DNA of 64,000 nucleotides from a virus (IMGVR_UViG_3300049455_000007:261-64260), one strand, 5' to 3'. Shown: positions 1,526 to 62,921, counted from the stretch's first letter. Numbers and translations: made by a program. Notes: generated by a model from the letters alone, not told the origin.

Positions 1526-1545
1526 GGTGTACCTTTCTGGTTTGG

Positions 1546-1563
1546 CGGCTGGTCGACCAGCCG
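1546..1563. promoter_or_regulatory. 18-bp palindrome family copy 1
   Basis: CGGCTGGTCGACCAGCCG (perfect 22 bp 1544-1565), intergenic. Confidence 0.65.
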
Positions 1564-1573
1564 CCGATGGATA

Positions 1574-1783
1574 TTACTTGCGTGCGGACACGTTGATCCG
1601 CCCGGTGTACAGCACCTCTGCGTCAGGGTGCGATGACTCAAAGACGATGACGAAGGCGTTGCCGTCGCTGTCTATCTCCGAGATGTGGACAAGGTCCTGC
1701 CCGTCCACTTGGAACGCCACGCTGCGGGTGTCGAAGCGCTTGGCCCCGAACCTCCAGCGCAGCGGTAACCGTGGTGGGGTCAA
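1574..1783 (-). CDS. hypothetical protein
   Basis: ORF with 4-bp overlap to upstream gene. Confidence 0.6.
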   Translation of the reverse strand: MTPPRLPLRWRFGAKRFDTRSVAFQVDGQDLVHISEIDSDGNAFVIVFESSHPDAEVLYTGRINVSARK

Positions 1784-1980
1784 CGCTCCACGTCCTGAAT
1801 GAGGTCGCTGATGTTGGGCACGAACGCCTCATCGAAGCAGGTGCCGCACTGGATGGTGAAGTCCCCGAGCATGTCGAGGTTGATGACCACGTCAGAGCCG
1901 GACTGTGTAAGGTCCAACTCGTTCATGGACATCGTCCCCCCGCAGTCACAATCGGCGATGTATTTGATGCGGATAGCCAT
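1780..1980 (-). CDS. small Cys-containing hypothetical protein
   Basis: MAIRIKYIADCDCGG...CGTC; start chosen at ATG overlapping upstream stop. Confidence 0.65.
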   Translation of the reverse strand: MAIRIKYIADCDCGGTMSMNELDLTQSGSDVVINLDMLGDFTIQCGTCFDEAFVPNISDLIQDVER

Positions 1981-2255
1981 CAGCCCACCACATGGTCGTC
2001 GAGGTAGGTCCGCAGCACCCATGCCTGACGATCCAGCGGGCGCACCCCGGTGATGCGCCCCTCGTACAGGTCATCGGACAGGGAACGCAGGTGTTCCACT
2101 ACCTCCTGCTCTGGCACGCCACCGTGTGCGGCCAGCGCCTCCACGAGGATCGGGTTGTAGTGCGTCCACTGGGAGAACGGCGGGTCTATCGCCGGACGGG
2201 GGACGGGCAGGATTTCCATGGGCTGGGTGTCGACGGACAGGGTGTCGGTGTTCAT
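1980..2255 (-). CDS. hypothetical protein
   Basis: MNTDTLSVD..., RBS GAAAGG, ATGA overlap. Confidence 0.65.
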   Translation of the reverse strand: MNTDTLSVDTQPMEILPVPRPAIDPPFSQWTHYNPILVEALAAHGGVPEQEVVEHLRSLSDDLYEGRITGVRPLDRQAWVLRTYLDDHVVG

Positions 2256-2581
2256 TTGGAACCTTTCGCAATTTGACGCTCGATGGCGTCGGTGATGATG
2301 GAGTGCACGGCGGGGGAACCCTCCTCCCAGTCCACCTCCACGATGTCGTCGGCCAGCGCCCGGAGCTTTGCCGGGACGACCGAGCCTGTGGGGACGGCGA
2401 GGATGATTGGCTTGTCCAGCATCACGGACAGTCCCAGTTCCACCGCGAACTTGATGTCCGGCGGTCCCTCGGGCATGAGGGAAATGGTGAACGCGGACCC
2501 TGCAATCTTGGGTACGACTTCGCGCTCTACGCGCCTCGCCCACTCGATGAACTCCGGGTCGTTCATGATGTCGTCAGTCAT
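2252..2581 (-). CDS. hypothetical protein, weak nucleoside 2-deoxyribosyltransferase-like motif
   Basis: RBS GAAAGGA; segment VELGLSVMLDKPII resembles the ExGxAxAxGKP motif; function call tentative. Confidence 0.65.
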   Translation of the reverse strand: MTDDIMNDPEFIEWARRVEREVVPKIAGSAFTISLMPEGPPDIKFAVELGLSVMLDKPIILAVPTGSVVPAKLRALADDIVEVDWEEGSPAVHSIITDAIERQIAKGSK

Positions 2582-2611
2582 GACATTCCTTTCGGTTGGT
2601 TGGTAGCCGGT

Positions 2612-2882
2612 TCATTTGAACCACCTTAAACAAAAGACACAGAAGTCCTCCGGCAGATGATGTAGCCGACGGGGGAAGCCCCGCTCGGCCACCTGCAGAT
2701 TGTCCCTGCGGTTGATCTGGAACATGGCAGCGATCTCGTTGAGTTCAGTCTCGGTGTCATCTTCCGTAGGGTCCCCGCCTGCATCGCGCCATGCGGTCCA
2801 TGGTTCGTGCAGGGTAAGGACTGCAACGATGTCCCCCTCGCAATAGAGGGCACCGTCCCATTTGTAGGCGGAATGCTGAGTC
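2612..2882 (-). CDS. hypothetical protein
   Basis: In ORF 2612..2905; likely start near MTQHSAYKW (start approximate), downstream of promoter at 2980-3008. Confidence 0.6.
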
Positions 2883-2922
2883 ATTGCCCGTCGTGCTCCA
2901 TTCAAAGTGAAAGGTGCGGTGG

Positions 2923-2940
2923 CCGCTGGTCGACCGTCTG
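2923..2940. promoter_or_regulatory. 18-bp palindrome family copy 2
   Basis: CCGCTGGTCGACCGTCTG, downstream of promoter. Confidence 0.75.
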
Positions 2941-2979
2941 CACCCGGAATGAGGGCATAGTTCTACCCCTCTACTCTCA

Positions 2980-3008
2980 AGTATACCAGACTTGGGAAGT
3001 TTTGTCAA
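2980..3008 (-). promoter_or_regulatory. sigma70/SigA-type early promoter
   Basis: TTGACA-17 bp-TATACT with TG extension. Confidence 0.85.
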
Positions 3009-3029
3009 GCGTGGGTAGGGGTGCGCGCC

Positions 3030-3809: not shown

Positions 3810-3984
3810 CACTAGCTTCCTTCCTTTGGTTTCCTGCCTGCGTGAGTAATTCCCGGAGTTGGTACGTGGTGATCTTCCCGACCATCGACCCGTAGGACTG
3901 TTGCCCGAAGTCGGCTTCATCGCAGAGGGCGAGGATGGCCTTCAGCACAGGGTGTGTGCAGTCGTCGGCCCTATTCCGTGTCAT
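3784..3984 (-). CDS. hypothetical protein
   Basis: 66-aa ORF filling gap between flanking genes. Confidence 0.55.
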   Translation of the reverse strand: MTRNRADDCTHPVLKAILALCDEADFGQQSYGSMVGKITTYQLRELLTQAGNQRKEASDETPRETQ

Positions 3985-4285
3985 TGGGGATAACCACGGG
4001 CCGCTGATCCAATGGGCGTGGCCGCTGGGGCGGCGTGCCCTTATGTGTGAAATAGCAGACCTGCAATATCAATGACGTTGATACGCCATACCTAGCCGCG
4101 AGTTCCCTAGTCGGGACACCCTGCTCAAACTCCCGCTGAATAGCGGTCATTGCACCTGCTGCGAGCTTTCGGGGGCGTCCGGATAGAGGGTCAATGTAGC
4201 GCCCCTCGGCTACATGCTGGGCTTGCTCCGAAATGCGTGCTCCTGCCCGCTCGTTGCTGATCCGTGCTCGTTTAGCTGCGCTCAT
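3971..4285 (-). CDS. helix-turn-helix DNA-binding protein
   Basis: IQREFEQGVPTRELAARYGVSTSLILQV HTH pattern. Confidence 0.7.
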   Translation of the reverse strand: MSAAKRARISNERAGARISEQAQHVAEGRYIDPLSGRPRKLAAGAMTAIQREFEQGVPTRELAARYGVSTSLILQVCYFTHKGTPPQRPRPLDQRPVVIPNDTE

Positions 4286-4318: not shown

Positions 4319-4336
4319 CAGATGGTCGACCACCTG
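4319..4336. promoter_or_regulatory. 18-bp palindrome family copy 3
   Basis: CAGATGGTCGACCACCTG, downstream of promoter. Confidence 0.8.
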
Positions 4337-5228: not shown

Positions 5229-5439
5229 CGCGTTCCTTTCGTGAGTTCCTATACAGACGCAGCGCCCGGTTGTGCGCCGTCCGTGCCCTCACTGCTTCCA
5301 CGTGGGCCGCGCTGATGGCATCCGCCAGCCCGCCTTGGAAGCCCTGAAACTTCGCCGCGATCATGGCTAACTCGCGCTCCGTCACCCAGATCGGAACCCG
5401 GGGCGGCTTGGGTTTGGAAGATGGTCGACCGTCTGTCAC
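5221..5439 (-). CDS. hypothetical protein
   Basis: RBS AAAGGAGG; first codons overlap an 18-bp palindrome copy. Confidence 0.65.
   Translation of the reverse strand: MTDGRPSSKPKPPRVPIWVTERELAMIAAKFQGFQGGLADAISAAHVEAVRARTAHNRALRLYRNSRKERDE
5418..5435. promoter_or_regulatory. 18-bp palindrome family copy 4
   Basis: AAGATGGTCGACCGTCTG. Confidence 0.8.
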
Positions 5440-6957: not shown

Positions 6958-7478
6958 GGCCGTGGGGAGTCGGTCGACCAGTTGGCGTTGTCCCGCAACA
7001 CGCCCCGGTATTCCGGCGGTACGTCCCCGCCACACCACAGCCCGCGCTTGGTGATGGTGATGCCGTCCGCGATGATGCTGAACTCCCGCCCGCCATACCC
7101 ATGCTCGGGTCCCCACGTGTAGACCGTCCCTTCAATGACCATGAGTTCGCCGTTCGCATACTGTGCCATGCGCCCGGTCCAGAACACGCAGTGAAAACAG
7201 ACAGTCCCGCCCTTGGTGAGGTAGTTGGCATCGGGCCGGAACCGCAGGCCGCAGTTGGTGCATGTGATGACCGGCCAGTTCCTGCGCGGGCCGGGGTCCA
7301 CCGCCCTCCACTGTGACCCGCCCTCGGTGCCCGTCCACTCGGTGATCCACAGGTGCCCGCCACTCCCTTCGAGTGGCATGGTCTGGTGCGGTCCGATGTG
7401 CCCTTCATCCCGGGTGCAGGTGTGCACCTGCCGGTCGTAGAACAGAGGTTTGCTGACGTTGCCGCAGATCATGGTCAT
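6954..7478 (-). CDS. Cys/His-rich hypothetical protein (CxxC pairs)
   Basis: CTNC, CFHC motifs; RBS CAGGAG. Confidence 0.7.
   Translation of the reverse strand: MTMICGNVSKPLFYDRQVHTCTRDEGHIGPHQTMPLEGSGGHLWITEWTGTEGGSQWRAVDPGPRRNWPVITCTNCGLRFRPDANYLTKGGTVCFHCVFWTGRMAQYANGELMVIEGTVYTWGPEHGYGGREFSIIADGITITKRGLWCGGDVPPEYRGVLRDNANWSTDSPRP
6967..6984. promoter_or_regulatory. 18-bp palindrome family copy 5
   Basis: GAGTCGGTCGACCAGTTG. Confidence 0.65.
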
Positions 7479-7813: not shown

Positions 7814-8215
7814 CTACTTCCTTGCAGTTGGTCGACCAGTTGCCGTGGGCTTCCGGCCATTCTTTATGAGTTGCTTCGTCGTTCGCGAGCGCACAATCCT
7901 TTTAACGGCACGCACGAACATGCGGTGACCGCGCTCGGCCTCCGCCAGCGTGGAGTACCTGTTCATGAGGTTCTCGAATCCGCCCATGTCGTCGTCCTCG
8001 AAGACAATCGTCTCGAAGATCAGTGGCGGACCGCCGGGCCAGAAGTTGTGGTCCAGACCCAGCCACACGGTGGACACCCGGTACATGTGGCCACGCAGCC
8101 GGATGTAGTCGAGGCTGATATGCCGGTCGTGCTCGAAGGCACGCGCCCACTCCATCTGCGTCATGGGCCTGCCGTTCATGGCGTAGTAGCGCGGGCCGAA
8201 GTCCTCAGCCCTCAC
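7814..8215 (-). CDS. hypothetical phage protein
   Basis: VSTVWLGLDHNF...PPLIFETIVF; start at GTG approximate. Confidence 0.65.
   Translation of the reverse strand: MRAEDFGPRYYAMNGRPMTQMEWARAFEHDRHISLDYIRLRGHMYRVSTVWLGLDHNFWPGGPPLIFETIVFEDDDMGGFENLMNRYSTLAEAERGHRMFVRAVKRIVRSRTTKQLIKNGRKPTATGRPTARK
7825..7842. promoter_or_regulatory. 18-bp palindrome family copy 6
   Basis: CAGTTGGTCGACCAGTTG. Confidence 0.75.
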
Positions 8216-9147: not shown

Positions 9148-9165
9148 CAGACGGTCGTACGTCTC
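9148..9165. promoter_or_regulatory. 18-bp palindrome family copy 7
   Basis: CAGACGGTCGTACGTCTC. Confidence 0.75.
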
Positions 9166-9861: not shown

Positions 9862-9879
9862 CAGATGGTCGACCAGTTG
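9862..9879. promoter_or_regulatory. 18-bp palindrome family copy 8
   Basis: CAGATGGTCGACCAGTTG, downstream of promoter. Confidence 0.8.
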
Positions 9880-10738: not shown

Positions 10739-10930
10739 CTATGTGGCGGACGTACGACCGTCTTCGATACGGGCACGGAGGACAGGGTCGATCCTGTTCT
10801 GCAGGCTGGTGACCTGCGCCTCCGTGAGCATGTCCGAGTCGACGATGGCGGTCAGCGCATCATCAAGTTCCTGCGCGGTGTACGCCTCGGGATTCTTGGC
10901 GACGGCCTTGGCCTTGGTGAGCGACATCAT
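10739..10930 (-). CDS. hypothetical protein
   Basis: MMSLTKAKAVAKNP..., RBS GAGGAAG. Confidence 0.6.
   Translation of the reverse strand: MMSLTKAKAVAKNPEAYTAQELDDALTAIVDSDMLTEAQVTSLQNRIDPVLRARIEDGRTSAT
10747..10764. promoter_or_regulatory. 18-bp palindrome family copy 9
   Basis: CGGACGTACGACCGTCTT. Confidence 0.65.
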
Positions 10931-11539: not shown

Positions 11540-11557
11540 CAGATGGGCGACCATCTG
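11540..11557. promoter_or_regulatory. 18-bp palindrome family copy 10
   Basis: CAGATGGGCGACCATCTG, intergenic. Confidence 0.8.
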
Positions 11558-12206: not shown

Positions 12207-12224
12207 GAGACGGTCGACCAGTTG
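12207..12224. promoter_or_regulatory. 18-bp palindrome family copy 11
   Basis: GAGACGGTCGACCAGTTG, downstream of promoter. Confidence 0.8.
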
Positions 12225-12722: not shown

Positions 12723-12740
12723 GAGATGGTCGACCGTCTG
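12723..12740. promoter_or_regulatory. 18-bp palindrome family copy 12
   Basis: GAGATGGTCGACCGTCTG, intergenic. Confidence 0.8.
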
Positions 12741-13646: not shown

Positions 13647-13664
13647 CAGACGTACGTACGTCTG
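13647..13664. promoter_or_regulatory. 18-bp palindrome family copy 13
   Basis: CAGACGTACGTACGTCTG (perfect 22 bp 13645-13666), downstream of promoter. Confidence 0.8.
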
Positions 13665-15501: not shown

Positions 15502-15519
15502 CAGACGGCCGACCGTCTG
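15502..15519. promoter_or_regulatory. 18-bp palindrome family copy 14
   Basis: CAGACGGCCGACCGTCTG, immediately upstream of RHH gene RBS. Confidence 0.8.
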
Positions 15520-15965: not shown

Positions 15966-16144
15966 GCGAGCAGCCCGACGAACGTCTGCAGCTACAGCTA
16001 CACACCCACATTTCCATGCCCATCAACGCCGACGGCTACGGACCCGAGATGGACGAGGATAAGGTCGTGGACACCATCTGCTGGTCCTGTCTGGAGACAT
16101 GGCCCTGCGCCGCATACCGTTCGGGCCACCCTGCGGGAGAATGA
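15962..16144 (+). CDS. small hypothetical protein
   Basis: MSEQPDERL...CWSCLETWPC; ATGA overlap. Confidence 0.55.
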   Translation: MSEQPDERLQLQLHTHISMPINADGYGPEMDEDKVVDTICWSCLETWPCAAYRSGHPAGE

Positions 16145-20696: not shown

Positions 20697-21409
20697 AATA
20701 CATGGGCGGCAAGACCCGCGTGGCATCGCAAATCTGCGCCGTCATGCGTGCCCGCAGCAGGGGTTCGGACACCTACGTGGAACCCTTCCTTGGCGGCGGG
20801 TCCGTGGCTGCGCTCATGGCCCCCGAGTTCAGGACGGTCCACCTGTCCGATGCCAACGAATCCCTCGTCATGCTCTGGCAGGAAGTCCTGTCCGGCTGGA
20901 AACCACCGGGGCACATCACTAAGCCGCAGTGGGAGGCGCTGCGGGCAGACGTACGACCGTCTGCCCTGAAGGCGCTTGCCGGGTTCGCGGCATCCTTCGG
21001 GGGCAAGTGGTTCGCCGGGTACGCCTCCAGCCCGGGACGGAACTACGTCGCCGGGTCCACCCGGCAACTGGTGAAGCACGCGAGCGGGTTCCGGCACGCC
21101 GAAGTCAGGCACCTCGACTACATCGAGGCCGGAGCGTTCGTTGGCCCCGGCACCGTCGTCTACTGCGACCCCCCATATGAGGGCACCACCGGATACGGCG
21201 CGGTCGGGTCATTCCACTCCGCGCAGTTCTGGGACACGATGCGGGAATGGACCGGGCGCGGGGCCAAGGTCTTCGTCTCGGAGTACACCGCCCCCGATGA
21301 CTTCGTGCCGGTGTGGCGGCTGAAGGTTCAGGTGTCACTGGCCAAGGACGGCAACACCGATATCGGAACCGAGCAACTGTTCACGTACCGGGAAGGAACC
21401 AATGGGTGA
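20693..21409 (+). CDS. DNA adenine methyltransferase (Dam/D12 class)
   Basis: MKYMGGK, YVEPFLGGGSV (motif I), VYCDPPY (motif IV). Confidence 0.9.
   Translation: MKYMGGKTRVASQICAVMRARSRGSDTYVEPFLGGGSVAALMAPEFRTVHLSDANESLVMLWQEVLSGWKPPGHITKPQWEALRADVRPSALKALAGFAASFGGKWFAGYASSPGRNYVAGSTRQLVKHASGFRHAEVRHLDYIEAGAFVGPGTVVYCDPPYEGTTGYGAVGSFHSAQFWDTMREWTGRGAKVFVSEYTAPDDFVPVWRLKVQVSLAKDGNTDIGTEQLFTYREGTNG
20946..20963. promoter_or_regulatory. 18-bp palindrome family copy 15
   Basis: CAGACGTACGACCGTCTG inside methyltransferase gene. Confidence 0.75.
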
Positions 21410-26166: not shown

Positions 26167-28445
26167 TCCGCACAGACCGCTTTACGGTTGACGTAGACAC
26201 CTTCGCCGCAGACCGGAGGAACATCCTCGAACGCTCCGACGCCCGGTTCGCCGGTCCCGTCCGCACATCCCTGATCCGGCTGGGCCTGCCCCGCTGGGAC
26301 GAGAACATCATCTCGATGGCGCTGGACATTTTCGACGAGACGGCCCGTTCCGAAATCGACCAGTGGAACCCGATCATCGACGACATGCGCGATGAGTTCA
26401 AGCGGGAACTTGGTGCGGCCCTCGCCAAGACGAAGGCTGCCCCGCCAGAGCAGTTCGACGTGCAGGTCGAGCGCATGACGAAGTGGCTCTCCACCTACTC
26501 CGTGAACGCCGGGACCGAAGCGGCAACCACCTCCGATACCGAAACGCACGTCGGGCTGGAGTGGGTCACGATGGACGACTCGCACGTACGTGATACGCAT
26601 AGAGAGGCCAGAGGCGAGACAGTCCCTTCCGGTCAGCCGTTTGAGGTCGGCGGGTTTGAACTGCTTTATCCGGGTCAACCAGTAGGACCCCCAGAAATCT
26701 GGATCAACTGTAGATGTGTTGCTCGTCCGGCCATGCTGGAAGGATTCAAGGTGAAAACCACAGAGTTCACATCAGAGGAGCAGCAGACGGTCGACCGTCT
26801 GCCGGAAGATTCACCAGATTCACCAGATTCACCGGGATTCACCTCGGTCACCGCCGCTGTAGAACCTGCGCCGGTGGTCCCTGCACCGATGATGCCAGTG
26901 GAGCAGAAGAAGGAACCCGTGCCTTGGTACGGTGTGCTCGCCCCGGAGGGCACCCCCTCCGGGGACGGGAGGCAGTTCGACGTGAACGGCCTGACCCACC
27001 GTGATCTGCCACTGCCACTGAAGGCGATGTTCGTGGACGACGATGGCCACAAGGGTTCAGTCATCGTGGGCCGCATCGACAACATCTTCCGCGACGGTGG
27101 CCTCGTCAAGGGTGAAGGTGTCTTTGATGACTCCGCGTTAGCCGCCGAGACGGTCCGCATGCTGGCCGAAGGCATGTGGCGCGGAGTGTCCGTGGACATC
27201 GACGACATGCAGGCCACGCTTTCCGAGGATGGGTCGGTATCGTCTGCCAGTGGGCGCATCTGTGCAGCTACCATCTGCGCCATCCCTGCCTTCGCGGAAG
27301 CATTCGTCGGGCTGGGCCGCTGGGCTGACGTTCGGCAGACGGTCGACCAACTGCCCGGGGAGGATGTTTCACGTGAAACATCCTTCGCGTCAGAGGGGTC
27401 ATGGGATGGGAGCGCCTCCCGGTTCTCCAACGAACAGTGGAAGAAGTCCTGCATCCTGCACGTCTGCGATGGTCCTGAAAAGTCGTGCCATAAACTGCCC
27501 ATCCGCGAGCCGGGCGGGGCACTCTCCCGCGCCGGGGTGCACGCCGCTGCCGGACGGATCGGTCAGGCACACGGAACCCCCGAGCAGATCGCTGCCGCTA
27601 AGTCGAAGCTGCGCGGTGCGTACAAGGAACTGGGCGAAACACCGCCGGACAGCCTGACGGCTGCACACACAGGAGAGATGATGACACTCACAGCAGCAGT
27701 CGAAGCCCCGGTCCTTCCCGCCGACTGGTTCAAGGACCCGGCCCTGCCCGGTCCCACCCCGTTCACAGTCACGGACGACGGGCGCGTGTACGGGCACGTT
27801 GCCACATGGGAGGCGTGCCACATCGGCCAGCCCATGACTGAGACCGAGTGCACCACCGCGCCGCACTCCGAGACAAACTACGCATACTTCCTCACCGGGG
27901 AAGTGCAGACCGATGTCGGCCCGGTCAACGTCGGCCAGATCACCATGGGTGGCGGGCACGCCAGCGACCGCATGGGGGTCCGGGCTGCGACCAGCCACTA
28001 CGATTCCACCTCCAGCGCCGTCGCGGACGTGACTGCCGGGGAGGACGAGTACGGTATCTGGGTCGCCGGGGCGCTGCGCTCCAGTGTCTCGGATGAGGAA
28101 ATTCATGCCCTGCGTGCCGCCGCGATTTCCGGAGACTGGCGTCGGGTGGCGATCGGCCGGGAAGGGAATCTGGAGATGGTCGCGGCGCTGGCCGTCAACG
28201 TCCCGGGCTTCCCGATCCCGCGCCCGTCCATGCTGGTTGCTTCCGGCGGCGAGGCGATGTCACTGGTGGCGGCTTCGATCCCGCTGGCGGAAGGGCAGGA
28301 CACGGGGGATAGCATTGAGATTCCGTCGACTCCGGCGGAGAAGTTCAACGCAGCGCGTGCCAAGTTCCGGCACCTTCAGGTTGCGCGGGCGAAGACAGCG
28401 TTTGTCGTGGATGAACAGGTACTGACGAGTGTGGGCGGAGAGTAG
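26163..28445 (+). CDS. MuF-like / capsid maturation protease fusion
   Basis: MuF motif WVTMDDSHVRDTH...INCRC; protease region GVLAPEG..SGDGR...GVSVD; extra C-terminal domains. Confidence 0.85.
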   Translation: MIRTDRFTVDVDTFAADRRNILERSDARFAGPVRTSLIRLGLPRWDENIISMALDIFDETARSEIDQWNPIIDDMRDEFKRELGAALAKTKAAPPEQFDVQVERMTKWLSTYSVNAGTEAATTSDTETHVGLEWVTMDDSHVRDTHREARGETVPSGQPFEVGGFELLYPGQPVGPPEIWINCRCVARPAMLEGFKVKTTEFTSEEQQTVDRLPEDSPDSPDSPGFTSVTAAVEPAPVVPAPMMPVEQKKEPVPWYGVLAPEGTPSGDGRQFDVNGLTHRDLPLPLKAMFVDDDGHKGSVIVGRIDNIFRDGGLVKGEGVFDDSALAAETVRMLAEGMWRGVSVDIDDMQATLSEDGSVSSASGRICAATICAIPAFAEAFVGLGRWADVRQTVDQLPGEDVSRETSFASEGSWDGSASRFSNEQWKKSCILHVCDGPEKSCHKLPIREPGGALSRAGVHAAAGRIGQAHGTPEQIAAAKSKLRGAYKELGETPPDSLTAAHTGEMMTLTAAVEAPVLPADWFKDPALPGPTPFTVTDDGRVYGHVATWEACHIGQPMTETECTTAPHSETNYAYFLTGEVQTDVGPVNVGQITMGGGHASDRMGVRAATSHYDSTSSAVADVTAGEDEYGIWVAGALRSSVSDEEIHALRAAAISGDWRRVAIGREGNLEMVAALAVNVPGFPIPRPSMLVASGGEAMSLVAASIPLAEGQDTGDSIEIPSTPAEKFNAARAKFRHLQVARAKTAFVVDEQVLTSVGGE
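26784..26801. promoter_or_regulatory. 18-bp palindrome family copy 16
   Basis: Perfect CAGACGGTCGACCGTCTG in MuF-protease linker. Confidence 0.8.
26808..26843 (+). repeat. 9-bp tandem repeat GATTCACC(A/G) x4
   Basis: Encodes DSPDSPDSPG linker directly after palindrome copy 16. Confidence 0.7.
27336..27353. promoter_or_regulatory. 18-bp palindrome family copy 17
   Basis: CAGACGGTCGACCAACTG, 11 bp from parS. Confidence 0.8.
27365..27380. promoter_or_regulatory. parS: perfect bacterial parS site
   Basis: TGTTTCACGTGAAACA, within 24-bp perfect palindrome 27361-27384; reads DVSRETS in protein. Confidence 0.85.
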
Positions 28446-39000: not shown

Positions 39001-40920
39001 GATGCCATCGACAAGCTGTTTACCGGCCACAACACCCAGACGGATCAGGCCCAAAGGAACCGGAAGTGGGTTGCATCCCTCTTCGGCATCCCCGACGCCG
39101 ACCAGTTCGACAAGGACGTGAACCAGTGGTTTGAGGACAACATCTTCAAGCCCACGCGCGAAATCGGCCCGGAAATCGGGCGGCTGTGGGACAAAACCAT
39201 CGGCTCGCTCTGGGACACCGTGTTCAACGGCAAGGGCGGGGGCGACAAGGGCACCGGCTCCGGCACGGGCGGCGGCTTGGGCAGTAGCGGTGCGGGTGGG
39301 CGCGGCCGTGGGGTCACGGGCAAGCTGGACCCGAACATCCTTGTCGGCACCCCGGCGGACACGGAGACGGCGTGGAAGACGTGGGGCGACGACATCATCG
39401 GGCGCATCCAGAAGATTCCGGGTGACATCTGGCAGGGCTTCCTCGACGGCTTCAACAGCCTGTCCGGCGGTGCTACCGGTATGGTGACGGCCATCGTCCA
39501 GAACTTCACCGGCTGGGTTCAGTCCGTGAAGGACTTCTTCGGCATCGCGTCCCCCTCCACCCTGATGCTGGGGATGGCCGGGGACATCGTGCAGGGCTTC
39601 ATCGACGGCTTTACTGACATCGGCACGAGGGTCGGGCAGGCGTGGGCCAACGTCGGCACGACCATCTCCACCAAGGTCGAGGAAATCAAGACCAACCTCG
39701 TTCAGTTCGGCACGGAGGTGCAGACGAACTGGGACCTGTTCTGGGGAGGCTTGGGCACGACGATCCAGACGAAGTGGACCGAGTTCACGACGTGGATTTC
39801 CACCACCACCGAGCAGATCAAGACCAACCTCGCCCAGTTCGGTACGGACGTGTCCACGAACTGGAACACGTTCTGGGGCGATGTTGGCACCTTCCTGCAG
39901 ACGAAGTGGACCGAGTTCACGACATGGGTTTCCACGAAAACGGAGGAAATCAAGACGAATATCGCCACCTTTGGCGAGACCGTCAAGACAAACTGGAACA
40001 CGTTCTGGACCGATGTCGGCACCACGATTCAGACGAAGTGGACCGAGTTCACGACGGCCATCAGCACCAAGGCCGAGGAAATCAGGACCAACCTCTCCAC
40101 CTTCGGCGAGAACGTCAAGACGAACTGGAACAACTTCTGGACCGAAGTGGGCAACAAGGTGTCCACCGCGTGGGAGGGCATCAAGTCCGGAGTCACGACC
40201 GGGATCGAGAACGTCATGACCTCTGTCCGGGAACTGCCGGGGAAGATCACCGGGGCGTTCTCGAACATGTGGCAATTGATGTCCGACGTGGGCAACAACA
40301 TCGCGAACGGACTGAAGGCCGGTATCGACGGTGGCGTCAAGTGGGTCACGGACGCTGCGACAACCTTGGCGAATGCTGCGGTCGACGCGGCCAACACCGC
40401 GCTGGGCAACAAGTCCCCGTCCAAGGTGTTCCGGCAGATCGGCCTGTTTACCGGCGAGGGCTACGTGCAGGGCATGAACTTGTCCGAGGCTCCGGTCGCG
40501 CTGGCCGCTGCCTCGATGGCGGCTGCCGCGACGGGCGGCATGCAGGCCCAGATCGACCCGCTCCGCAACACCATGCAGGCAATGGTCGACGCGCTGACAG
40601 GCCCGCTCACCGCGGACCTGTCCCAGTCACAGATGTACATCACGGGCAGGGACGCGGCGCAGGGTCTGGCCGACGGGCTGAAGGCCAACCGCTCCGCCGT
40701 GCACACCGCGCTCGGCACGTTGGGCGCGTTCACCGTGCCTTCCCAGTCGGTTATCACTGTCAGTGGTGCCATCGAATCGGCAGTTGGTCGACCGTCTGCC
40801 GAATCGGGCAACCACCTGACTATTGCGCAGGGGGCCATCAACATCACCACACCCACCCAGAATCCGGAACTGGTGGCCGCCAAGGTCATCGACGGCTTCT
40901 CCAACTTCTCCAGCTTCTGA
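36001..40920 (+). CDS. tape measure protein (1639 aa)
   Basis: Longest ORF, helical, Trp-periodic repeats, starts VADAYIEV. Confidence 0.95.
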   Translation: MGIGRQVADAYIEVHGDLSKFRRDLAEGSGAEAEAIKGADKFTKAWADRVKQGVNEKWASIVDAMYSDKKLDWDRMIGAFDSRNLDEAETKITEFMDKMKAAGKLTQDQFDGAKKSLDGVLEGMREQNRLLDRQEQETRGLGMATDANRTLFAEANAENEKWARTFEGMFKNNQLAKIEEDFKGIAKAMNESDWSKFTNGFDSMQEASRRVRELNALMHEQGRITDENAAKVQSSIDQYIQGEKDKSKAMRDSLDETNRLRKAQDDYNASLSGMARNIHFGELEGQFKQLARAMDSNDWSHFAKGAANANEMQARIGQAADEMHRLGRMSDEELSLVNSRAKEAAGNFRLFSGELAKAEAIMARSSSGGGGGGKFKSMLGGLGDATRGLREHLQGFAGLNVFGDMIEGGLEFLHNLDRIAVSASLTTLKLTTMASVVGSALTALFPIATDLGGIIGGLGAALPAFATGLGIMGFIAIEALGGFAKQYKKEILKFKEDLLKEVMVGLDPALNRFRDQTLPTLKKNLADAAGAMGRMFGTILDAITKNANNDLMTLMFKRMNDAMDKSHVGVEALVHIWAVLGEVGTRFFDRFATGFNDMATQWADFIDKSAANGDIEKWINNMIDGFKDLFRAFDGAFGIINAVSDAARAAGFGGLKTFADALQNAAAAMQSIAFQKTLSIYLEGMHGLVGKLGDALKGLGPAAESFAPTALVALGSIGDAVSKLIGYVGDIFKNPAFQLGVNNFTAGIADAVRKLEPAVKPFGDSLGNALTLLGMIVGSVAGIATAFTVTLGPVLDNMSAKMQTLVQPLADAASKLITDMKGPLDAINREIVGPLVEGIRDKLLPALTGPGGFTEKFGDFATKVITDIGPSFRIVVNEVLPNLVKVATEVLGPLGSLVDLLSPTLAATVGAIGTALGNMANDIKVLKSELPITELSIFKAFSPEVIQKQIEQESVKPQRWSEILAIFFTKNIQTGMELAWTEKIYPAIVKADDWVWDKATDAIDKLFTGHNTQTDQAQRNRKWVASLFGIPDADQFDKDVNQWFEDNIFKPTREIGPEIGRLWDKTIGSLWDTVFNGKGGGDKGTGSGTGGGLGSSGAGGRGRGVTGKLDPNILVGTPADTETAWKTWGDDIIGRIQKIPGDIWQGFLDGFNSLSGGATGMVTAIVQNFTGWVQSVKDFFGIASPSTLMLGMAGDIVQGFIDGFTDIGTRVGQAWANVGTTISTKVEEIKTNLVQFGTEVQTNWDLFWGGLGTTIQTKWTEFTTWISTTTEQIKTNLAQFGTDVSTNWNTFWGDVGTFLQTKWTEFTTWVSTKTEEIKTNIATFGETVKTNWNTFWTDVGTTIQTKWTEFTTAISTKAEEIRTNLSTFGENVKTNWNNFWTEVGNKVSTAWEGIKSGVTTGIENVMTSVRELPGKITGAFSNMWQLMSDVGNNIANGLKAGIDGGVKWVTDAATTLANAAVDAANTALGNKSPSKVFRQIGLFTGEGYVQGMNLSEAPVALAAASMAAAATGGMQAQIDPLRNTMQAMVDALTGPLTADLSQSQMYITGRDAAQGLADGLKANRSAVHTALGTLGAFTVPSQSVITVSGAIESAVGRPSAESGNHLTIAQGAINITTPTQNPELVAAKVIDGFSNFSSF
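40781..40798. promoter_or_regulatory. 18-bp palindrome family copy 18
   Basis: CAGTTGGTCGACCGTCTG near 3' end of tape measure. Confidence 0.75.
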
Positions 40921-51101: not shown

Positions 51102-51143
51102 AAGACTCCCGGCGCTGGAGCGTCTCCCTGCGCCGGGCAAGAT

Positions 51144-51192
51144 AAAACCCCCCACCGAATCGTGCGCCCTCTCAATTCGGCTGGGGGGTTTT
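51144..51192. terminator. bidirectional intrinsic terminator between convergent arms
   Basis: AAAACCCCCCACCGAAT...ATTCGGCTGGGGGGTTTT. Confidence 0.85.
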
Positions 51193-51204
51193 GTTGTCTA
51201 TCGG

Positions 51205-51222
51205 CAGACGGTCGACCGTCTG
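51205..51222. promoter_or_regulatory. 18-bp palindrome family copy 19
   Basis: Perfect copy extended to 28 bp (51200-51227) next to bidirectional terminator. Confidence 0.85.
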
Positions 51223-53837: not shown

Positions 53838-53855
53838 CAGTTGGTCGTACGTCTG
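53838..53855. promoter_or_regulatory. 18-bp palindrome family copy 20
   Basis: CAGTTGGTCGTACGTCTG, intergenic. Confidence 0.75.
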
Positions 53856-55962: not shown

Positions 55963-55980
55963 GAGACGGTCGACCGTCTG
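55963..55980. promoter_or_regulatory. 18-bp palindrome family copy 21
   Basis: GAGACGGTCGACCGTCTG abutting Rad52-like stop codon. Confidence 0.8.
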
Positions 55981-57206: not shown

Positions 57207-57518
57207 TCATTCATTTATGAAGTGGATACCCCCGTCATTATCGAAGAGCACCAGTCCCATAAAGGTCTGAATCGGAACGGTCGACGGCTCATCCACGCTG
57301 ATCCCCACAATGTAACCCCGATCACGTGCGCTGTCAGGATGGGAGTGTGCCCACTCGTGACATGTGCGGCATAGGCCAACGAGATTGCCCTCGGCATGTC
57401 CGCCTTCGCGTCGCCGCTGTCGGTGGTGAATCTGGTAGCCGCGCCCACCACAGCGGGCGCACTGCCTGTTCTGTCGCTCCCAAACCTTGTCCCGTGCACT
57501 GGTTGGGATGGCGCTCAC
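57207..57518 (-). CDS. HNH endonuclease
   Basis: CARC...HHR...NLVGLCRTCHEWAH. Confidence 0.85.
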   Translation of the reverse strand: MSAIPTSARDKVWERQNRQCARCGGRGYQIHHRQRRREGGHAEGNLVGLCRTCHEWAHSHPDSARDRGYIVGISVDEPSTVPIQTFMGLVLFDNDGGIHFINE

Positions 57519-57949
57519 CGACGCACCACCCACGGTGTCTCTACCCGGCGACTCGTCCTGACGGTAGCCAGCCCGAGGATGCGCCGCCGCGTGTAGACGG
57601 AGTCGAGTGACCGCCCCAGCGCCACGGCGATCTGTTCGTAGCTCTGGCCGGTGATGTTCTCGCGCAGGTACTTGTCCTCCTCGGCGGACCAGCGCCGGTA
57701 CTTACTGGTCTGCAACTCCTCCGGCGGTCTGGCAGACGGTCGACCGATGCCCCGCTCCTCACGGTCGCGCTTCTTCTGCCTGTTCACGCAGTCGTGGCAC
57801 GCCTTGCGCCGCGCCCCGACGCCTGAGATAACCGGGAAGCTGTCGCCGTCCGCCAGTTGCCCGCACCGTAGGCAGGTGCGGGCAACCAGCGTGCGCTGGC
57901 CGACGGAGAACGGACTGTAGGGTCCGCGGCTCGGCAGAGCATCCTTCAT
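57515..57949 (-). CDS. zinc-ribbon + Myb/SANT-like HTH protein
   Basis: CLRC...CHDC then RWSAEEDKYLREN...SYEQIAVALGRSLDSVYTRRRILGL. Confidence 0.75.
   Translation of the reverse strand: MKDALPSRGPYSPFSVGQRTLVARTCLRCGQLADGDSFPVISGVGARRKACHDCVNRQKKRDREERGIGRPSARPPEELQTSKYRRWSAEEDKYLRENITGQSYEQIAVALGRSLDSVYTRRRILGLATVRTSRRVETPWVVRR
57733..57750. promoter_or_regulatory. 18-bp palindrome family copy 22
   Basis: CAGACGGTCGACCGATGC inside Myb-like gene linker. Confidence 0.65.
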
Positions 57950-58165: not shown

Positions 58166-58416
58166 TGCCCCGCCTCCGGAATGGTGATGATGTACGACGG
58201 CAGGTCATCCGGCCTGAACATCAGGGGCGGGGACAGTTCCAGTCCCTGCCTCACGATCCACGCCTCGAACGCCTTGAACACTTCCTCCGTGAGGATTACC
58301 TGCACGGTGGACAGGTCACTACCTGCATAGACGATCGGGTACTTGGTTTCGTCCTCATCACCCAGTGGTAGGCCAGCCTGCACGCGGTTCTCGCGCCGTT
58401 GCTTATCGGTCGTCAT
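58162..58416 (-). CDS. hypothetical protein
   Basis: RBS GGAGG, ATGA overlap. Confidence 0.6.
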   Translation of the reverse strand: MTTDKQRRENRVQAGLPLGDEDETKYPIVYAGSDLSTVQVILTEEVFKAFEAWIVRQGLELSPPLMFRPDDLPSYIITIPEAGQ

Positions 58417-58868
58417 GGCAATGCCTCCAGAATCCTTCGGATGGTCGGGTACATGTCCTCGTCCACACCCAAGTCGGACAGGATCGCCAGCACCTGATCT
58501 TTGGTCAGGTAACGCGGGTGTGGCCGGGCCAGCCGGGGACGGTATGGTGATTCCTCCCGGTCCTCGACGTAGCCCTTCAGCACATAGACCTGCTGGCCGC
58601 TTCGCCGCTCCTGCAACCGGGCAACACGATCGGCCCGGTGCAGGTGCGTAAGGGCGGAAGAGGCCGGGCCGTGGCCCAACGACAGGTGGTCCTCCACTTC
58701 CTTCACGGTCATGCCCGCCGTGGTGTGCGTGGCAAGGAGGGCGAACACCTGCGCCTGTCGCTTGCCCGTGATTCCCATACTGTCCTCACGCTCGGCCCGC
58801 TCCCGGGATGTCTCCGAGCCTGACCAGCCGCTTCCCTTGCTCCCGTACGGGATGATGCCTTCAGTCAT
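58413..58868 (-). CDS. winged-helix DNA-binding protein
   Basis: RQAQVFALL...GMTVKEVEDHLSLGHGPASSALTHL. Confidence 0.65.
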   Translation of the reverse strand: MTEGIIPYGSKGSGWSGSETSRERAEREDSMGITGKRQAQVFALLATHTTAGMTVKEVEDHLSLGHGPASSALTHLHRADRVARLQERRSGQQVYVLKGYVEDREESPYRPRLARPHPRYLTKDQVLAILSDLGVDEDMYPTIRRILEALP

Positions 58869-60188: not shown

Positions 60189-60206
60189 CAGACGGTCGAC
60201 CGTCTG
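60189..60206. promoter_or_regulatory. 18-bp palindrome family copy 23
   Basis: Perfect copy, intergenic after helicase. Confidence 0.85.
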
Positions 60207-61457: not shown

Positions 61458-62278
61458 CGACGGTTCTCCGGTATCCATGAGTGCATCGGGTGGACGATCG
61501 ACTGGTTAGAGGGCTTCCAGCCCCTGCGTTCCGCATCCGTCTGCGCCCGGCGCATCCAGTTCCGCCATGTGGTTTCCCAATTCTTCTTCTTGCCCCCCTC
61601 CCCATGCCAGTAGTCCACGAACGCATCCGTCTCACGCTTGGCATTGATGGCGGGAGCGTGCTCTTTGGCCCACGCCTCCCGCTCGGGAGACAGTCCGAAC
61701 TCAGCCGGGACGGCATGCGCAGCCGCTGCCTTCGGGGCCTTCGATGGAGCGGCGCTACTAATGGATGGTTCATGGATGGTTAAAGGACGGTTTGTAGGAC
61801 ATCCGTGTCCGGCCTGAATGTCTCCAGTGTCCGGCCTAGATGTCTCAGATGTCCGCCCGGACACGGGTGACCGGTCACCCGTGTCCGCCCTGCCCCCCAG
61901 TTCTGGCCGGACACTGGTGTCCGGGCGGACATCCTGTCCCCCCAAGATTGGCTCCAAGATTTCCTGTCCGATGTGCTCGTCCGGGGTGGCCTCGACATCC
62001 AAGCACAGGTCCCAAACGATGGGCCTGCGGTTGGTCGGGATGTGCGCGACCATCTGCTGGTCACCGCGTTTGATGAGGCCCGCCGCCTCCAGTACGGCGA
62101 GCTTCCTGCGTACTGTTCGGGACGAGGTCCGTGCGTACGTTGCGAGCGTGTTCTGTGCGGCATACGCCACCGTGCCATCCTCGTGCGCATGATCGGCAAG
62201 GCCGACGAGGATAAGGGCTTCCACCGGGTCTGAGACGGGGGCCTTCTTCAAGGCCCAAACCATGGCTTCTATACTCAC
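61454..62278 (-). CDS. replication initiator (N-terminal HTH, lambda O-like architecture)
   Basis: LILVGLADHA...QNTLATYARTSSRTVRRKLAVLEAAGLIKR; central repeats; C-terminal WETTWRNW; upstream of helicase. Confidence 0.8.
   Translation of the reverse strand: MSIEAMVWALKKAPVSDPVEALILVGLADHAHEDGTVAYAAQNTLATYARTSSRTVRRKLAVLEAAGLIKRGDQQMVAHIPTNRRPIVWDLCLDVEATPDEHIGQEILEPILGGQDVRPDTSVRPELGGRADTGDRSPVSGRTSETSRPDTGDIQAGHGCPTNRPLTIHEPSISSAAPSKAPKAAAAHAVPAEFGLSPEREAWAKEHAPAINAKRETDAFVDYWHGEGGKKKNWETTWRNWMRRAQTDAERRGWKPSNQSIVHPMHSWIPENRR
61805..61925. repeat. iteron-like direct and inverted repeats (candidate origin)
   Basis: GTGTCCGGCCT at 61805 and 61827; perfect 30-bp palindrome 61858-61887; CCGGACAC-T-GGTGTCCGG. 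Confidence 0.65.
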
Positions 62279-62397
62279 TGCTGCTACTTGTCCCCTTAGT
62301 TGGTTGTGCGGTTGCTTCGTTGCACCGGTACCATAGGAGATACCCCCCCCTATGGGTCCTACCGGTTGAGTCACATCCGCACGGTTTGGTTGAAATC

Positions 62398-62434
62398 AAA
62401 AGCGCCCCTGCCGTCCAAAGCTGGGGGCGCTTTT
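62398..62434. terminator. bidirectional-type intrinsic terminator
   Basis: AAAAGCGCCCC/GGGGCGCTTTT. Confidence 0.75.
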
Positions 62435-62537
62435 TCATTTGGTTCCGATAGCCTATCGCAAGCGTTATGCCGCGCTTCTTGGTATGCTGGAGGTTCGGTT
62501 TACATTCAGAGGTTGGTAGCCAAAGGTTGTACCGAAC

Positions 62538-62576
62538 GACGAAGCCCCCGCCACTAAAACCGCCGGGGGCTTCGTC
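62538..62576 (-). terminator. 13-bp stem hairpin after 62587..62862
   Basis: GACGAAGCCCCCG/CGGGGGCTTCGTC. Confidence 0.65.
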
Positions 62577-62586
62577 ATGCCCGGGG

Positions 62587-62862
62587 TTAGTGGGAGGCGA
62601 ACTGTTCCCGGAGTTCCGGGAACTGGGTGAAGTATTCCTCCACCTTCCGTGCGGCCTTTTCAGACTCGGTCAGGCGGCGGGTGTAGTTGAGTCCCTGTTC
62701 CACGAACTTCGCCTCCGTGATCTGGTTCAGTTCGTCCCGGTGGTTGTTCAGCACCTCGCGCTCAGCCTCGTTGCGCAGACGGTTTTTTTTCTGCTGCACG
62801 GTTTCGTCCGTTACGACTTCCTCGTTGTCCGTAACGGGGGCTTCGATCGTTCCTGTTGCCAT
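62587..62862 (-). CDS. hypothetical protein (helical)
   Basis: RBS AGGAG; 91 aa. Confidence 0.7.
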   Translation of the reverse strand: MATGTIEAPVTDNEEVVTDETVQQKKNRLRNEAEREVLNNHRDELNQITEAKFVEQGLNYTRRLTESEKAARKVEEYFTQFPELREQFASH

Positions 62863-62903
62863 CGGTGGCTATCTCCTGATTGTTGTGTGGGTTATGTGGG
62901 TTG

Positions 62904-62921
62904 CAGACGGTCGACCATCTG
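62904..62921. promoter_or_regulatory. 18-bp palindrome family copy 24
   Basis: CAGACGGTCGACCATCTG, intergenic after SSB. Confidence 0.85.

Follow-up and report, generated by a model that had tools for sequence, protein, structure and literature searches.

One palindromic element occurs 24 times, mostly at gene junctions, in the genome of an uncultured lytic phage, a relative of Arthrobacter phage Tank, and the corresponding junctions of related phages carry repeats of the same build and different sequence. We conclude that the palindrome is a genuine punctuation signal, and that others like it have been noted before in actinobacterial phages (Cluster O, Cluster EG); new here are the lineage-specific 7-4-7 repeats at orthologous places across relatives. 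The 64-kb phage genome is complete, was taken from IMG/VR, and has the architecture seen in Arthrobacter Cluster AP. The record is 64,260 bp long, circularly permuted, with terminal repeats present, and the window (the whole stretch analyzed, 64,000 nucleotides) comprises its bases 261-64260. Because the record is circularly permuted, the regions 1-13.7 kb and 51-64 kb join as one leftward-transcribed arm of ~27 kb.

A sequence-only reading of the window had listed 24 related 18-bp palindromes, and a family member is present at all 24 of those coordinates. When the genome was scanned with a half-site weight matrix, used to score windows in bits, these sites reached 20.0-34.6 bits; the next-best scan window scored 16.2 bits (at 15971) and the remaining ones ≤9.2 bits, while ten Markov simulations gave peak scores of 7-13 bits. 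The original list was therefore complete and clean. The frequency is also above chance, with 15 sites within ≤3 mismatches of the 18-mer where 0.12 are expected from shuffles. The symmetric unit that had been described holds, but its length does not, since it extends to 20-22 bases when the flanks are included. The full unit is G-G-CAGACGG-TCGA-CCGTCTG-C-C, a 7-4-7 build plus two more paired flank bases: half-site position -1 is G in 45 of 48 halves, a further G precedes it in 34 of 48, and conservation reaches equally far on both sides, to the G at +/-10. In this genome it is highest over the central 8 bp, with the center fixed as TCGA, its own complement. The recurring half-sites had been named correctly; they occur as discrete variants and, as had been proposed, combine independently (206 paired positions vs 198 ± 4.6 in random pairings of the 48 half-sites, P~0.06). 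Among 596 Gb of prokaryote genomes the exact 18-mer has scattered single matches only, with none in Arthrobacter; there is no exact copy elsewhere in IMG/VR, and no matching family in Rfam.

Counts and placement both describe a non-random, sequence-specific network at gene junctions. Thirteen sites fall within 1-13.7 kb, the number previously assigned to the early arm, and six more within 51-64 kb, the leftward arm of ~27 kb thus carrying 19 of the 24. The centers of 16 sites are intergenic in a genome with 9.6% intergenic DNA (P~2e-11). At each of the five promoter-bearing junctions (5/5) the site lies downstream of the promoter, within the leader of an early transcription unit and ~27-40 nt beyond its -10 box; at none does it fall in the gap that separates the promoter from the stop before it. 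Intercistronic sites follow a stop by 0-23 nt and most precede an RBS-preceded start by 12-41 nt, and the repeats of Tank, SilentRX and Ranunculus have the same stop/start spacing. A minority of sites reside inside ORFs, one lies where the two arms converge, and relatives also have repeat copies in their terminal repeats. The sites, with their scores, their orthologues in the closest relative (IMG/VR genome G001, given by coordinate) and three neighboring features, are as follows.

Site 1, 1546..1563, 20.2 bits: variant and perfect 22-bp palindrome with three mirrored changes per arm; 10 nt past the stop of ORF 1574-1720 and 20 nt ahead of the start of ORF 599-1525.
Site 2, 2923..2940, 24.8 bits: leader of an early leftward promoter (TTGACA-17-TATACT at 3008-2980), 40 nt downstream of the -10; G001 22633.
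Site 3, 4319..4336, 24.9 bits: leader of an early leftward promoter whose -10 (4391-4363) is 27 nt away, upstream of a basic ORF having an HTH-like stretch; G001 20561.
Site 4, 5418..5435, 27.5 bits: gene junction; G001 18490.
Site 5, 6967..6984, 20.4 bits: 3' end of ORF 6954-7472, ahead of the start of ORF 6607-6918, sense hairpin weak (-2.6 kcal/mol); G001 16717.
Site 6, 7825..7842, 25.3 bits: 3' end of ORF 7814-8245, with the next start 17 nt on; outer arms form a direct instead of an inverted repeat; G001 15577.
Site 7, 9148..9165, 27.4 bits: 32 nt ahead of the start of ORF 8750-9115; G001 14312.
Site 8, 9862..9879, 23.5 bits: leader of an early leftward promoter whose -10 (9945-9917) is 38 nt upstream; G001 13632, with the same leader sequence.
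Site 9, 10747..10764, 20.0 bits: weakest member, followed by a terminator-like hairpin; G001 12676.
Site 10, 11540..11557, 29.5 bits: CAGAT variant on both arms (a compensated change), sense hairpin -19.5 kcal/mol; G001 11229.
Site 11, 12207..12224, 24.6 bits: leader of an early leftward promoter whose -10 (12289-12261) is 37 nt upstream, with the start of ORF 11787-12176 30 nt on; G001 10484.
Site 12, 12723..12740, 29.8 bits: gene junction, followed by a short T run on the sense strand.
Site 13, 13647..13664, 25.5 bits: leader of the outermost leftward promoter (TTGACA box ~65 nt upstream), with the start of ORF 12838-13620 26 nt on; perfect palindrome of two CAGACGTAC halves; G001 9019.
Site 14, 15502..15519, 24.8 bits: abuts a stop codon, 12 nt ahead of the 51-aa ribbon-helix-helix-like ORF 15532-15687; G001 6525, in identical arrangement.
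Site 15, 20946..20963, 30.1 bits: within a D12-class adenine methyltransferase gene (20693-21409) that is missing from G001.
Site 16, 26784..26801, 32.5 bits: exact consensus within the MuF/protease gene (26163-28445), in frame and encoding QTVDRL.
Site 17, 27336..27353, 32.4 bits: within the same MuF/protease gene, 11 nt from the parS below; G001 62799.
parS, 27365-27380: one exact canonical copy, apart from the palindrome family.
Site 18, 40781..40798, 32.4 bits: within the tape-measure gene, 139 nt before its stop; the aligned codons are occupied in 8 phages, each by its own repeat sequence.
Terminator, 51125..51195: canonical bidirectional intrinsic terminator, a long GC stem between an A run and a T run, adjoining site 19 and outside the palindrome family.
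Site 19, 51205..51222, 34.6 bits: convergent junction of the arms, 5 nt past the RusA-like stop, where the palindrome reaches 28 bp; place occupied in G001, Tank, SilentRX, Ranunculus, MellowYellow and Odyssey395.
Site 20, 53838..53855, 27.9 bits: 7 nt past the stop of ORF 53863-54039; G001 33630.
Site 21, 55963..55980, 29.8 bits: abuts the stop of the Rad52-like recombinase, with the exonuclease start 70 nt on; G001 31320; kept exactly in a soil contig (L082, 83% identical), while Tank, SilentRX, Ranunculus, MellowYellow and Odyssey395 each have their own repeat at this junction.
Site 22, 57733..57750, 22.5 bits: inside ORF 57515-57949; G001 29614, also intragenic.
Site 23, 60189..60206, 34.6 bits: exact consensus between the DnaB-like helicase stop, 15 nt upstream, and the next start, 18 nt downstream; junction occupied in G001 (27679), Tank, SilentRX and Ranunculus.
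Site 24, 62904..62921, 30.3 bits: 11 nt past the SSB stop; junction occupied in G001 (25071), Tank and Ranunculus.
Possible decayed 25th copy, 15971..15988, 16.2 bits: between family and noise.

All the relatives examined match this phage in genome architecture, and each carries a 7-4-7 inverted repeat of its own around a common CGG-N4-CCG core: among the cultured Arthrobacter phages, GGGTCGG-N4-CCGACCC in Tank (Cluster AP) and SilentRX and CTGCCGG-N4-CCGGCAG in Ranunculus, MellowYellow and Odyssey395, and CAGTTGG-TCGA-CCAACTG, in 31-33 copies, in G001. These repeats are the true family of the element. The published description of Tank makes no mention of any repeat (PMC5513430). The orthologous places include the junctions that follow the stops of SSB, helicase, recombinase and RusA and a point ~140 nt short of the tape-measure stop. 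Lineages differ in the outer four bases of the arms and in the center, which is variable or GNRA-like in Tank and SilentRX and fixed as TCGA here. The arms do not follow the host, as SilentRX and Ranunculus have the same host strain and different arms, while Tank and SilentRX have different hosts and common arms. Conservation of position is most extensive with G001 (mean amino-acid identity to this phage, 66%), which has a counterpart for 20 of the 24 sites. At half-site positions 4-5 of these 20 orthologous junctions, G001 has TT in 39 of 40 halves, whereas this phage has AC in 22, AT in 6, CT in 5 and TT in 4. The sites have therefore kept their places and changed their arms in concert, which calls for a co-evolving reader.

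We tentatively favor, at somewhat less than an even chance, transcribed punctuation hairpins read by a phage-specific factor over double-stranded operators. A transcribed copy may fold into a GC-rich hairpin of 9-11 bp with a four-base cap, and a phage-encoded factor (perhaps a regulator or endoribonuclease that binds hairpins, or else an antitermination/pausing factor) would read the hairpin sequence-specifically and set where early and late messages get processed, stabilized or attenuated. A cognate factor of this type would account for the single stem used throughout a genome, for the change of stem from relative to relative at unchanged junctions, and for loops that follow the direction of transcription. 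The data show the sequence family, its placement, its concerted divergence across orthologous junctions and the polarity of the loops in relatives; that the RNA folds in vivo, that such a factor exists and what kind it is, and how it acts on the RNA are what we infer.

One argument for RNA comes from the centers. An RNA hairpin had been rejected in the sequence-only reading, which was too quick: the TCGA of this phage is self-complementary, but the asymmetric centers of three relatives are polar with respect to transcription, with GNRA-type tetraloops on the mRNA strand. In Tank, 27 of 29 copies have G as loop base 1 on the mRNA strand, and there are 21 GNRA loops on the sense strand vs 2 on the antisense; of 41 SilentRX copies, 25 have G at base 1 and 27 have A at base 4 (mirror image, 10 and 8); in G001, which shares the center of this phage, the variant center reads GCGA on the sense strand at 11 sites and UCGC at 2. 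Such orientation is not expected from a symmetric dimer bound to double-stranded DNA, and strand composition opposes the bias, the sense strand being poor in G and T. In addition, single-mismatch arms of left-arm SilentRX copies form G-U on the sense strand, compensated variants occur at 1546, 11540 and 13647 here and at 10484 in G001, and Tank and SilentRX have copies directly after the major capsid and major tail genes, a classical position for RNA hairpins.

The palindromes of this phage give a less favorable picture. Consensus copies are strong (-14 to -21 kcal/mol) and a hairpin is present in ~2/3 of copies, but on the sense strand 8 of the 24 sites fold at -7 kcal/mol or weaker, no more stably than background; the antisense fold is the better one at 14 sites and the sense fold at 8, and sense-strand mismatches are A-C in 19 cases and G-U in 5. 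The weak folds, the antisense preference, the A-C mismatches and the random-level pairing of halves argue against the hairpin reading here, as do the copies that lie within ORFs or where the arms converge, and those in the terminal repeats of relatives. The proteins of this phage yielded no candidate RNA-binding protein or nuclease for the palindromes. We know of no system with 20-40 identical protein-read hairpins in one phage, and we consider it rather doubtful that there is a clade-wide post- or co-transcriptional regulon in which one phage protein reads 25-40 identical RNA hairpins at cistron boundaries and promoter leaders. If there is, a lytic Arthrobacter phage clade, and perhaps the Cluster O mycobacteriophages, would share a regulon whose stem specificity co-evolves by lineage, with a logic like that of Cas6/Csy4-type processing or N/boxB antitermination, genome-wide.

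Second in probability, and a serious contender, is that the palindromes are double-stranded operators for a dimeric (or dimer-of-dimers) protein that the phage encodes. When occupied, copies in leaders and at junctions would obstruct or modulate RNA polymerase during elongation, stoperator-like, giving a timed shut-off of the early arm, or would organize the genome; this would match the “shut-off or DNA-organising system” that had been suggested from the sequence. The freely combining half-site variants, the symmetric conservation out to +/-10, and the third of sites that lose hairpin stability yet hold a good half-site score are all consistent with operators, as are the intragenic, convergent-junction and terminal-repeat copies and the concerted, lineage-specific changes of the arms. 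The tape-measure site is converted in one arm only: its 3' arm has shifted to the genome consensus at the cost of pairing and of a Thr-to-Ser change, which looks like half-site recognition and not stem maintenance. There are precedents in the 18-30 dispersed repressor sites in each of the L5 and phiC31 genomes (PMC4557955), and the authors of the Cluster O study interpret their own repeat likewise (PMC4351075). However, transcription-oriented centers in Tank, SilentRX and G001 are not required by a symmetric dimer, and on this view loop polarity would be a secondary adaptation of an unavoidable RNA hairpin; the peak of conservation in the central 8 bp is also unusual for a dimer site, and no binder was found. 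The ribbon-helix-helix-like protein, which has a site 12 nt before its start codon here and in G001, is a candidate, but its beta-strand is identical in the two phages though their main half-sites differ, and relatives of other repeat classes have no site at that gene. Two further candidates were rejected: the replication-initiator HTH protein (Hum25 has the module, at 68% identity, without sites, and the gene is missing in G001) and the winged-helix protein encoded at 58413-58868 (absent from Tank, with an unchanged recognition helix across repeat classes). For the ParB-like protein, its own canonical parS is present.

Readings without a dedicated reader fare worse. In one, which we hold improbable, the copies would be “linkers” at gene boundaries or a selfish foldback repeat; template switching at quasi-palindromes and a Rad52-type recombinase would keep them uniform, and they would serve or merely permit cassette exchange, insertion and deletion. 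The phage does encode a Rad52-like annealing protein, a Cas4-like exonuclease and a RusA-like resolvase; close relatives differ by the gain and loss of sites (one contig, L073, has a site where this phage has none, and 4 sites of this phage have no G001 partner); Ranunculus copies are flanked on both sides by in-frame TAA stops, like a portable cassette; and Cluster O repeats bound insertions and deletions (PMC4351075). However, the flanks of the copies are unique, which leaves gene conversion no homology to work on, the 20 junctions changed in concert yet stayed in place, no transposase or HUH/RAYT-like (Y1/HUH) gene was detected in the scanned ORFs, and a selected function is indicated both by where the copies lie with respect to promoters and start codons and by the polarity of the loops. 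Ordinary intrinsic terminators, or host-read stabilizing hairpins recognized without regard to sequence, are highly improbable despite the strong consensus hairpins just past stop codons: most copies have no U tract or T run after them and a terminator scan calls none, the textbook terminator next to site 19 shows that the phage employs ordinary terminators where termination is needed, five promoter junctions have the site within the leader, and hairpins selected for structure only would not share one genome-wide sequence, switch in concert or have arms that are independent of the host.

Among known systems, the lambdoid nut/boxB hairpin, read by N proteins, has a GNRA-type loop and lies in leaders past early promoters; its stem sequence co-varies with the phage-specific reader, and there are two copies per genome. 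The leader position is common to both (five promoters here), while GNRA loops are found in the relatives only, the copy number of the palindromes (24-40) is ten times the lambdoid one, and neither a boxA partner nor an arginine-rich N-like protein was recognized in this phage. REP elements with RAYT were rejected, as the scanned ORFs have no Y1/HUH domain and the repeat has no conserved GTAG/CTAC head, and so were parS/ParB sites, the family being unlike the 16-bp TGTTNCACGTGAAACA-type parS.

The sequence-only reading had compared the palindromes with Cluster A stoperators, a set that is incomplete, since symmetric multi-copy repeats are known in lytic actinophages (PMC4351075, PMC7302621). 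Like the palindromes, the L5 gp71 stoperators and the phiC31 sites are dispersed, reside in short intergenic gaps and occur in both arms. The L5 sites act within transcription units and are transcription-oriented. They differ in that L5 sites are 13 bp, asymmetric and monomer-bound, whereas those described here are symmetric and 18-22 bp, and in that L5 and phiC31 are temperate, with the immunity repressor as the binder. No such gene is detectable here: as had been noted, there is no visible integrase or repressor domain in the ~85 ORFs scanned (Pfam, PHROGs).

The Cluster EG phages of Microbacterium have an 18-bp inverted repeat, GATCAACC-NN-GGTTGATC, located 14-22 bp ahead of start codons (Jacobs-Sera et al. 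2020, PMC7302621). They too are lytic, without integrase or repressor, and keep the repeat among members despite diverging flanks; unlike the present element, theirs has 8-10 copies, 8-bp arms, a 2-nt spacer and no CGG/CCG core, with none reported inside late genes. In Cluster O (Corndog), a 17-bp repeat, TGTTCGG-N3-CCGAACA, occurs in >30 copies (Cresawn et al. 2015, PMC4351075), and our analysis confirmed ~34 near-identical copies per genome. It shares with the palindrome the 7-bp arms, a short spacer, the CGG...CCG inner core, a preference for the short intergenic gaps of the leftward arm, with some copies in genes, and absence from the host. Its spacer, which leans to A on the sense strand, is 3 nt as opposed to 4, and the outer arm bases, host genus and virion differ; a single common protein at the BLAST level (small, secreted or membrane) means that no common reader is evident. 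In build, copy number, placement and conservation alike, the palindrome described here agrees with the Cluster O/EG type of repeat.

The window, bases 261-64260 of a 64,260-bp IMG/VR virus record bearing terminal repeats, thus represents a circularly permuted complete genome. Its structural proteins match those of the Arthrobacter phages Tank and Wilde (Cluster AP), SilentRX, Ranunculus, MellowYellow and Odyssey395 at 50-62% identity, and all these phages share its two-arm layout. Neither an integrase nor a repressor was detected among its genes, in agreement with the sequence-only reading. A 957-aa collagen-repeat protein (16181-19054) is encoded among small genes upstream of the terminase; in relatives, similarity is limited to a short C-terminal segment.

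Gene content of the two arms
~14.2-51.1 kb, rightward: ParB-like protein, D12 methyltransferase, terminase, portal, MuF/protease fusion, capsid, tape measure, tail proteins
51.2-64 kb, continuing into 1-13.6 kb, leftward (part 1): RusA, Cas4-like exonuclease, Rad52-like recombinase, HNH, DnaB
Same leftward arm (part 2): O-like initiator, SSB, DUF4192, Lsr2-like protein, many small ORFans

The 18-mer consensus (arms CAGACGG, centre TCGA) has 15 matches in the window with ≤3 mismatches, compared to 0.12 expected. A family member is present at 24/24 of the coordinates initially proposed, and these sites score 20.0-34.6 bits with a weight matrix derived from the 48 half-sites (one arm plus half of the centre). 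Simulated sequence tops out at 7-13 bits; one doubtful additional copy occurs at 15971 (16.2 bits) and all remaining positions score ≤9.2 bits. The half-site is preceded by G in 45/48 halves, with a further G before that in 34/48, so that consensus copies are 22-bp palindromes, longer than first described. The best-conserved part is the central GGTCGACC, while half-site positions 4-5 vary most.

The exact 18-mer had no match in the rest of IMG/VR, and its 16-mer core returned only two unrelated contigs; genome and metagenome scans for the motif yielded single matches at chance level plus two genuine soil relatives. Based on these scans, an origin of the motif in the host or another phage was rejected, as was a SalI-type restriction/methylation signal (GTCGAC occurs 53 times in the window, mostly outside the family). 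Rfam and tRNA scans gave no match. A handful of unrelated bacterial genomes carry the exact 18-mer more than once (L010, L039, L060, L068 [Dechloromonas sp. ZS-1]; L067, a Binatia MAG with three copies within 500 bp; and L125); these are probably the genomes' own foldback repeats, unrelated to the phage.

The leftward arm holds 19/24 palindromes. As had been proposed, most sites lie at gene junctions, with 16/24 centres intergenic in a genome with 9.6% intergenic DNA (P ~2e-11). Typically, the palindrome begins 0-23 nt after a stop codon and is separated from the next start codon by 12-41 nt that include the RBS. A SigA-like promoter precedes five sites (2923, 4319, 9862, 12207, 13647), where the palindrome is 27-40 nt past the -10 box, which places it in the leader instead of between the upstream gene and the promoter.

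Several other repeated elements occur in these regions. The early promoters are paralogous cassettes (~2945-3010, 9880-9947, 12225-12290, 13665-13730; ~13590-13631 in G001, the closest relative) with a common leader (TAGAGTAG..GGG..TATGCCC) and a first hairpin ahead of the palindrome; the promoter spacer at 2923 and 4319 contains ACTTCCCAAG. A second repeat, GGCTACCAACC, has 16 copies in the window vs. 1 expected (e.g., 1507-1517, 9844-9854, 11488-11498, 12164-12174, 62511-62521), nearly always in sense orientation to leftward genes and within ~30 nt of start codons; several genes start M-A-T-N, and the same word flanks G001 sites. Five iteron-like CGTTACC copies (13745-13817) reside in a 550-bp non-coding gap between the divergent arms; this gap probably represents the physical end of the genome, or else an origin or packaging region.

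For comparative analysis, we assembled a series of seven genomes plus fragments, representing four arm classes (distinguished by lineage-specific outer arm bases) at the same junctions. De novo searches recovered in each relative its own repeat, with 7-bp arms around a 4-nt centre and the inner core CGG-N4-CCG. The paper describing Tank does not mention its repeat.

Repeats of the cultured Arthrobacter phages
Tank: ~28 copies, arms GGGTCGG
SilentRX: ~41 copies, arms GGGTCGG
Ranunculus: ~31 copies, arms CTGCCGG, centre ACGT
MellowYellow and Odyssey395: arms CTGCCGG, centre T-N-N-A

Conservation of position, a check suggested by the sequence-only reading, was found across the relatives' genomes: repeats occur directly after the RusA stop codon (at the arm junction), after the recombinase, helicase and SSB stop codons, and 139-154 nt before the tape-measure stop codon. 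In an alignment of eight phages the tape-measure repeat spans identical codon positions, encoding x-[V/I]-G-x-P-[S/T]-x with a codon choice that matches each phage's own arms. At ~30 Ranunculus sites (L140/L141), TAA stands on either side of the repeat on the sense strand, in frame and 21 nt apart; the TAA on the upstream side often terminates the preceding gene, with a stop-to-site gap of 0-2 nt in 11 cases.

A tail-protein query retrieved further IMG/VR relatives, several with the arm CAGTTGG. Among them, G001 is a complete genome of 63,250 bp that has 63/101 proteins in common with the window (mean identity 66%, full synteny) and 31-33 copies of CAGTTGG-TCGA-CCAACTG. Of the 24 window sites, 20 have a counterpart at the orthologous G001 junction; at these junctions half-site positions 4-5 are TT in 39/40 G001 halves, while the window has AC (22), AT (6), CT (5) and TT (4). 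One short soil contig (L082) keeps an exact site after the recombinase gene, with flanks 83% identical to the window, and another (L073) has a site at a place without one in the window. These comparisons indicate that sites are retained in position as their sequence changes concertedly; as the flanks are unique, this argues for a co-evolving reader, a factor recognizing the palindrome, rather than gene conversion. SilentRX and Ranunculus share a host strain and differ in their arms, and Tank uses the SilentRX arms in a different host. The reader should therefore be phage-encoded. Across these genomes, the comparison shows sites that appear to co-evolve with something phage-specific, and an element that in three relatives is polar with transcription.

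We tentatively read the palindrome as a transcribed hairpin recognized by a phage-specific factor, a reading that falls short of probable and weighs the evidence from the window and the relatives together with the leader and inter-cistronic placement. The evidence from relatives favours a strand-specific, transcription-linked role. On the mRNA strand of Tank the centre starts with G in 27/29 sites, and GNRA tetraloops are present in 21 sites vs. 2 in the opposite orientation. SilentRX loops, compared with their mirror image, have G at position 1 (25:10) and A at position 4 (27:8), and the variant G001 centre, read on the mRNA strand, is GCGA at 11 sites vs. UCGC at 2 (orientation taken from RBS and start-codon context). 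G and T are scarce on the sense strand, so composition opposes these loop biases. Single-mismatch arms in SilentRX are G-U on the sense strand, and compensated arm variants occur at 1546, 11540 and 13647 in the window and at 10484 in G001.

A double-stranded operator for a dimeric protein is a real, if somewhat doubtful, possibility, and evidence within the window itself favours half-site recognition. Half-sites combine independently, as first claimed (random re-pairing gives 198 ± 4.6 complementary positions vs. 206 observed, P ~0.06). Sense-strand folds are within the background range at 8/24 sites, and of the two strands the antisense gives the better fold at 14 sites vs. 8 for the sense strand. 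Arm mismatches on the mRNA strand are A-C (19) more than G-U (5), a bias in line with strand composition and opposite to that expected if stems were maintained. In the tape-measure copy the 3' arm alone has shifted to the new consensus, with pairing lost and Thr changed to Ser. The initial rejection of an RNA hairpin, based on half-site independence, was premature in view of the loop polarity in Tank, SilentRX and G001. Five to six palindromes lie in frame within ORFs, apparently in linker regions. As an explanation of the whole family, a boundary linker or selfish repeat without a reader is improbable. A textbook bidirectional terminator adjoins site 51205, the convergent junction of the arms, and it is very improbable that the palindromes themselves are plain terminators.

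Several candidate readers were considered. The O-like replication initiator (HTH) is excluded: Hum25 has the module at 68% identity without sites, and G001 has the repeat without the gene. The winged-helix protein (58413-58868) is also excluded, being absent from Tank and having an identical recognition helix across repeat classes. The sole protein in common with Corndog carries a signal peptide and is secreted or membrane-bound, not a nucleic-acid binder. A 51-aa ribbon-helix-helix-like ORF (15532-15687; no PDB match) is conserved in G001, Ranunculus and Tank. A palindrome lies just upstream of it in the window phage and G001, with none there in other repeat classes; its beta-strand is identical in the window and G001 and does not track repeat class. 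Judged on these features, it is no more than a weak candidate. The ParB-like protein is probably excluded because of a separate exact parS at 27365-27380.

This parS is canonical (TGTTTCACGTGAAACA); it falls within the coding sequence of the MuF/protease fusion, with palindrome 27336 lying 11 nt away. Three such sites are present in Ranunculus (portal and protease genes), one each in MellowYellow, Odyssey395 and Tank, and none in SilentRX; all five, like the window phage, encode a 193-aa ParB_N-like protein upstream of the terminase. A basic early protein (3971-4285, minus strand; pI 10.8) directly follows a promoter and palindrome; its N-terminus is rich in Arg and Lys, it contains an HTH-like stretch, and it is conserved at 73% identity in G001 and partly in Ranunculus.

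With the comparative series, what was an isolated observation becomes a system open to testing. Tank, SilentRX and Ranunculus, being available in culture, lend themselves readily to RNA-end mapping, reporter assays and pull-downs. A reader protein, if found, would offer compact, orthogonal protein-site pairs for gene-expression control in Actinobacteria.

The closest described features are the 17-bp Cluster O (Corndog) repeat, TGTT-CGG-N3-CCG-AACA (PMC4351075), of which we counted 34 copies in Corndog, and the 18-bp Cluster EG repeat (PMC7302621). Both belong to lytic actinophages, are mostly upstream of leftward genes and have no function ascribed (PMC4351075, PMC7302621); a literature search found no follow-up work on the Cluster O repeat. 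L5 stoperators and phiC31 sites are known functional dispersed sites and, unlike the window palindromes, belong to temperate phages and their repressors (PMC4557955). Several actinophage clusters have been known for a decade to carry such repeats, with no function assigned to them. The novelty here lies at the level of the family: a shared 7-4-7 architecture, sites at orthologous positions, arms that change in concert, and polarity of the loop.
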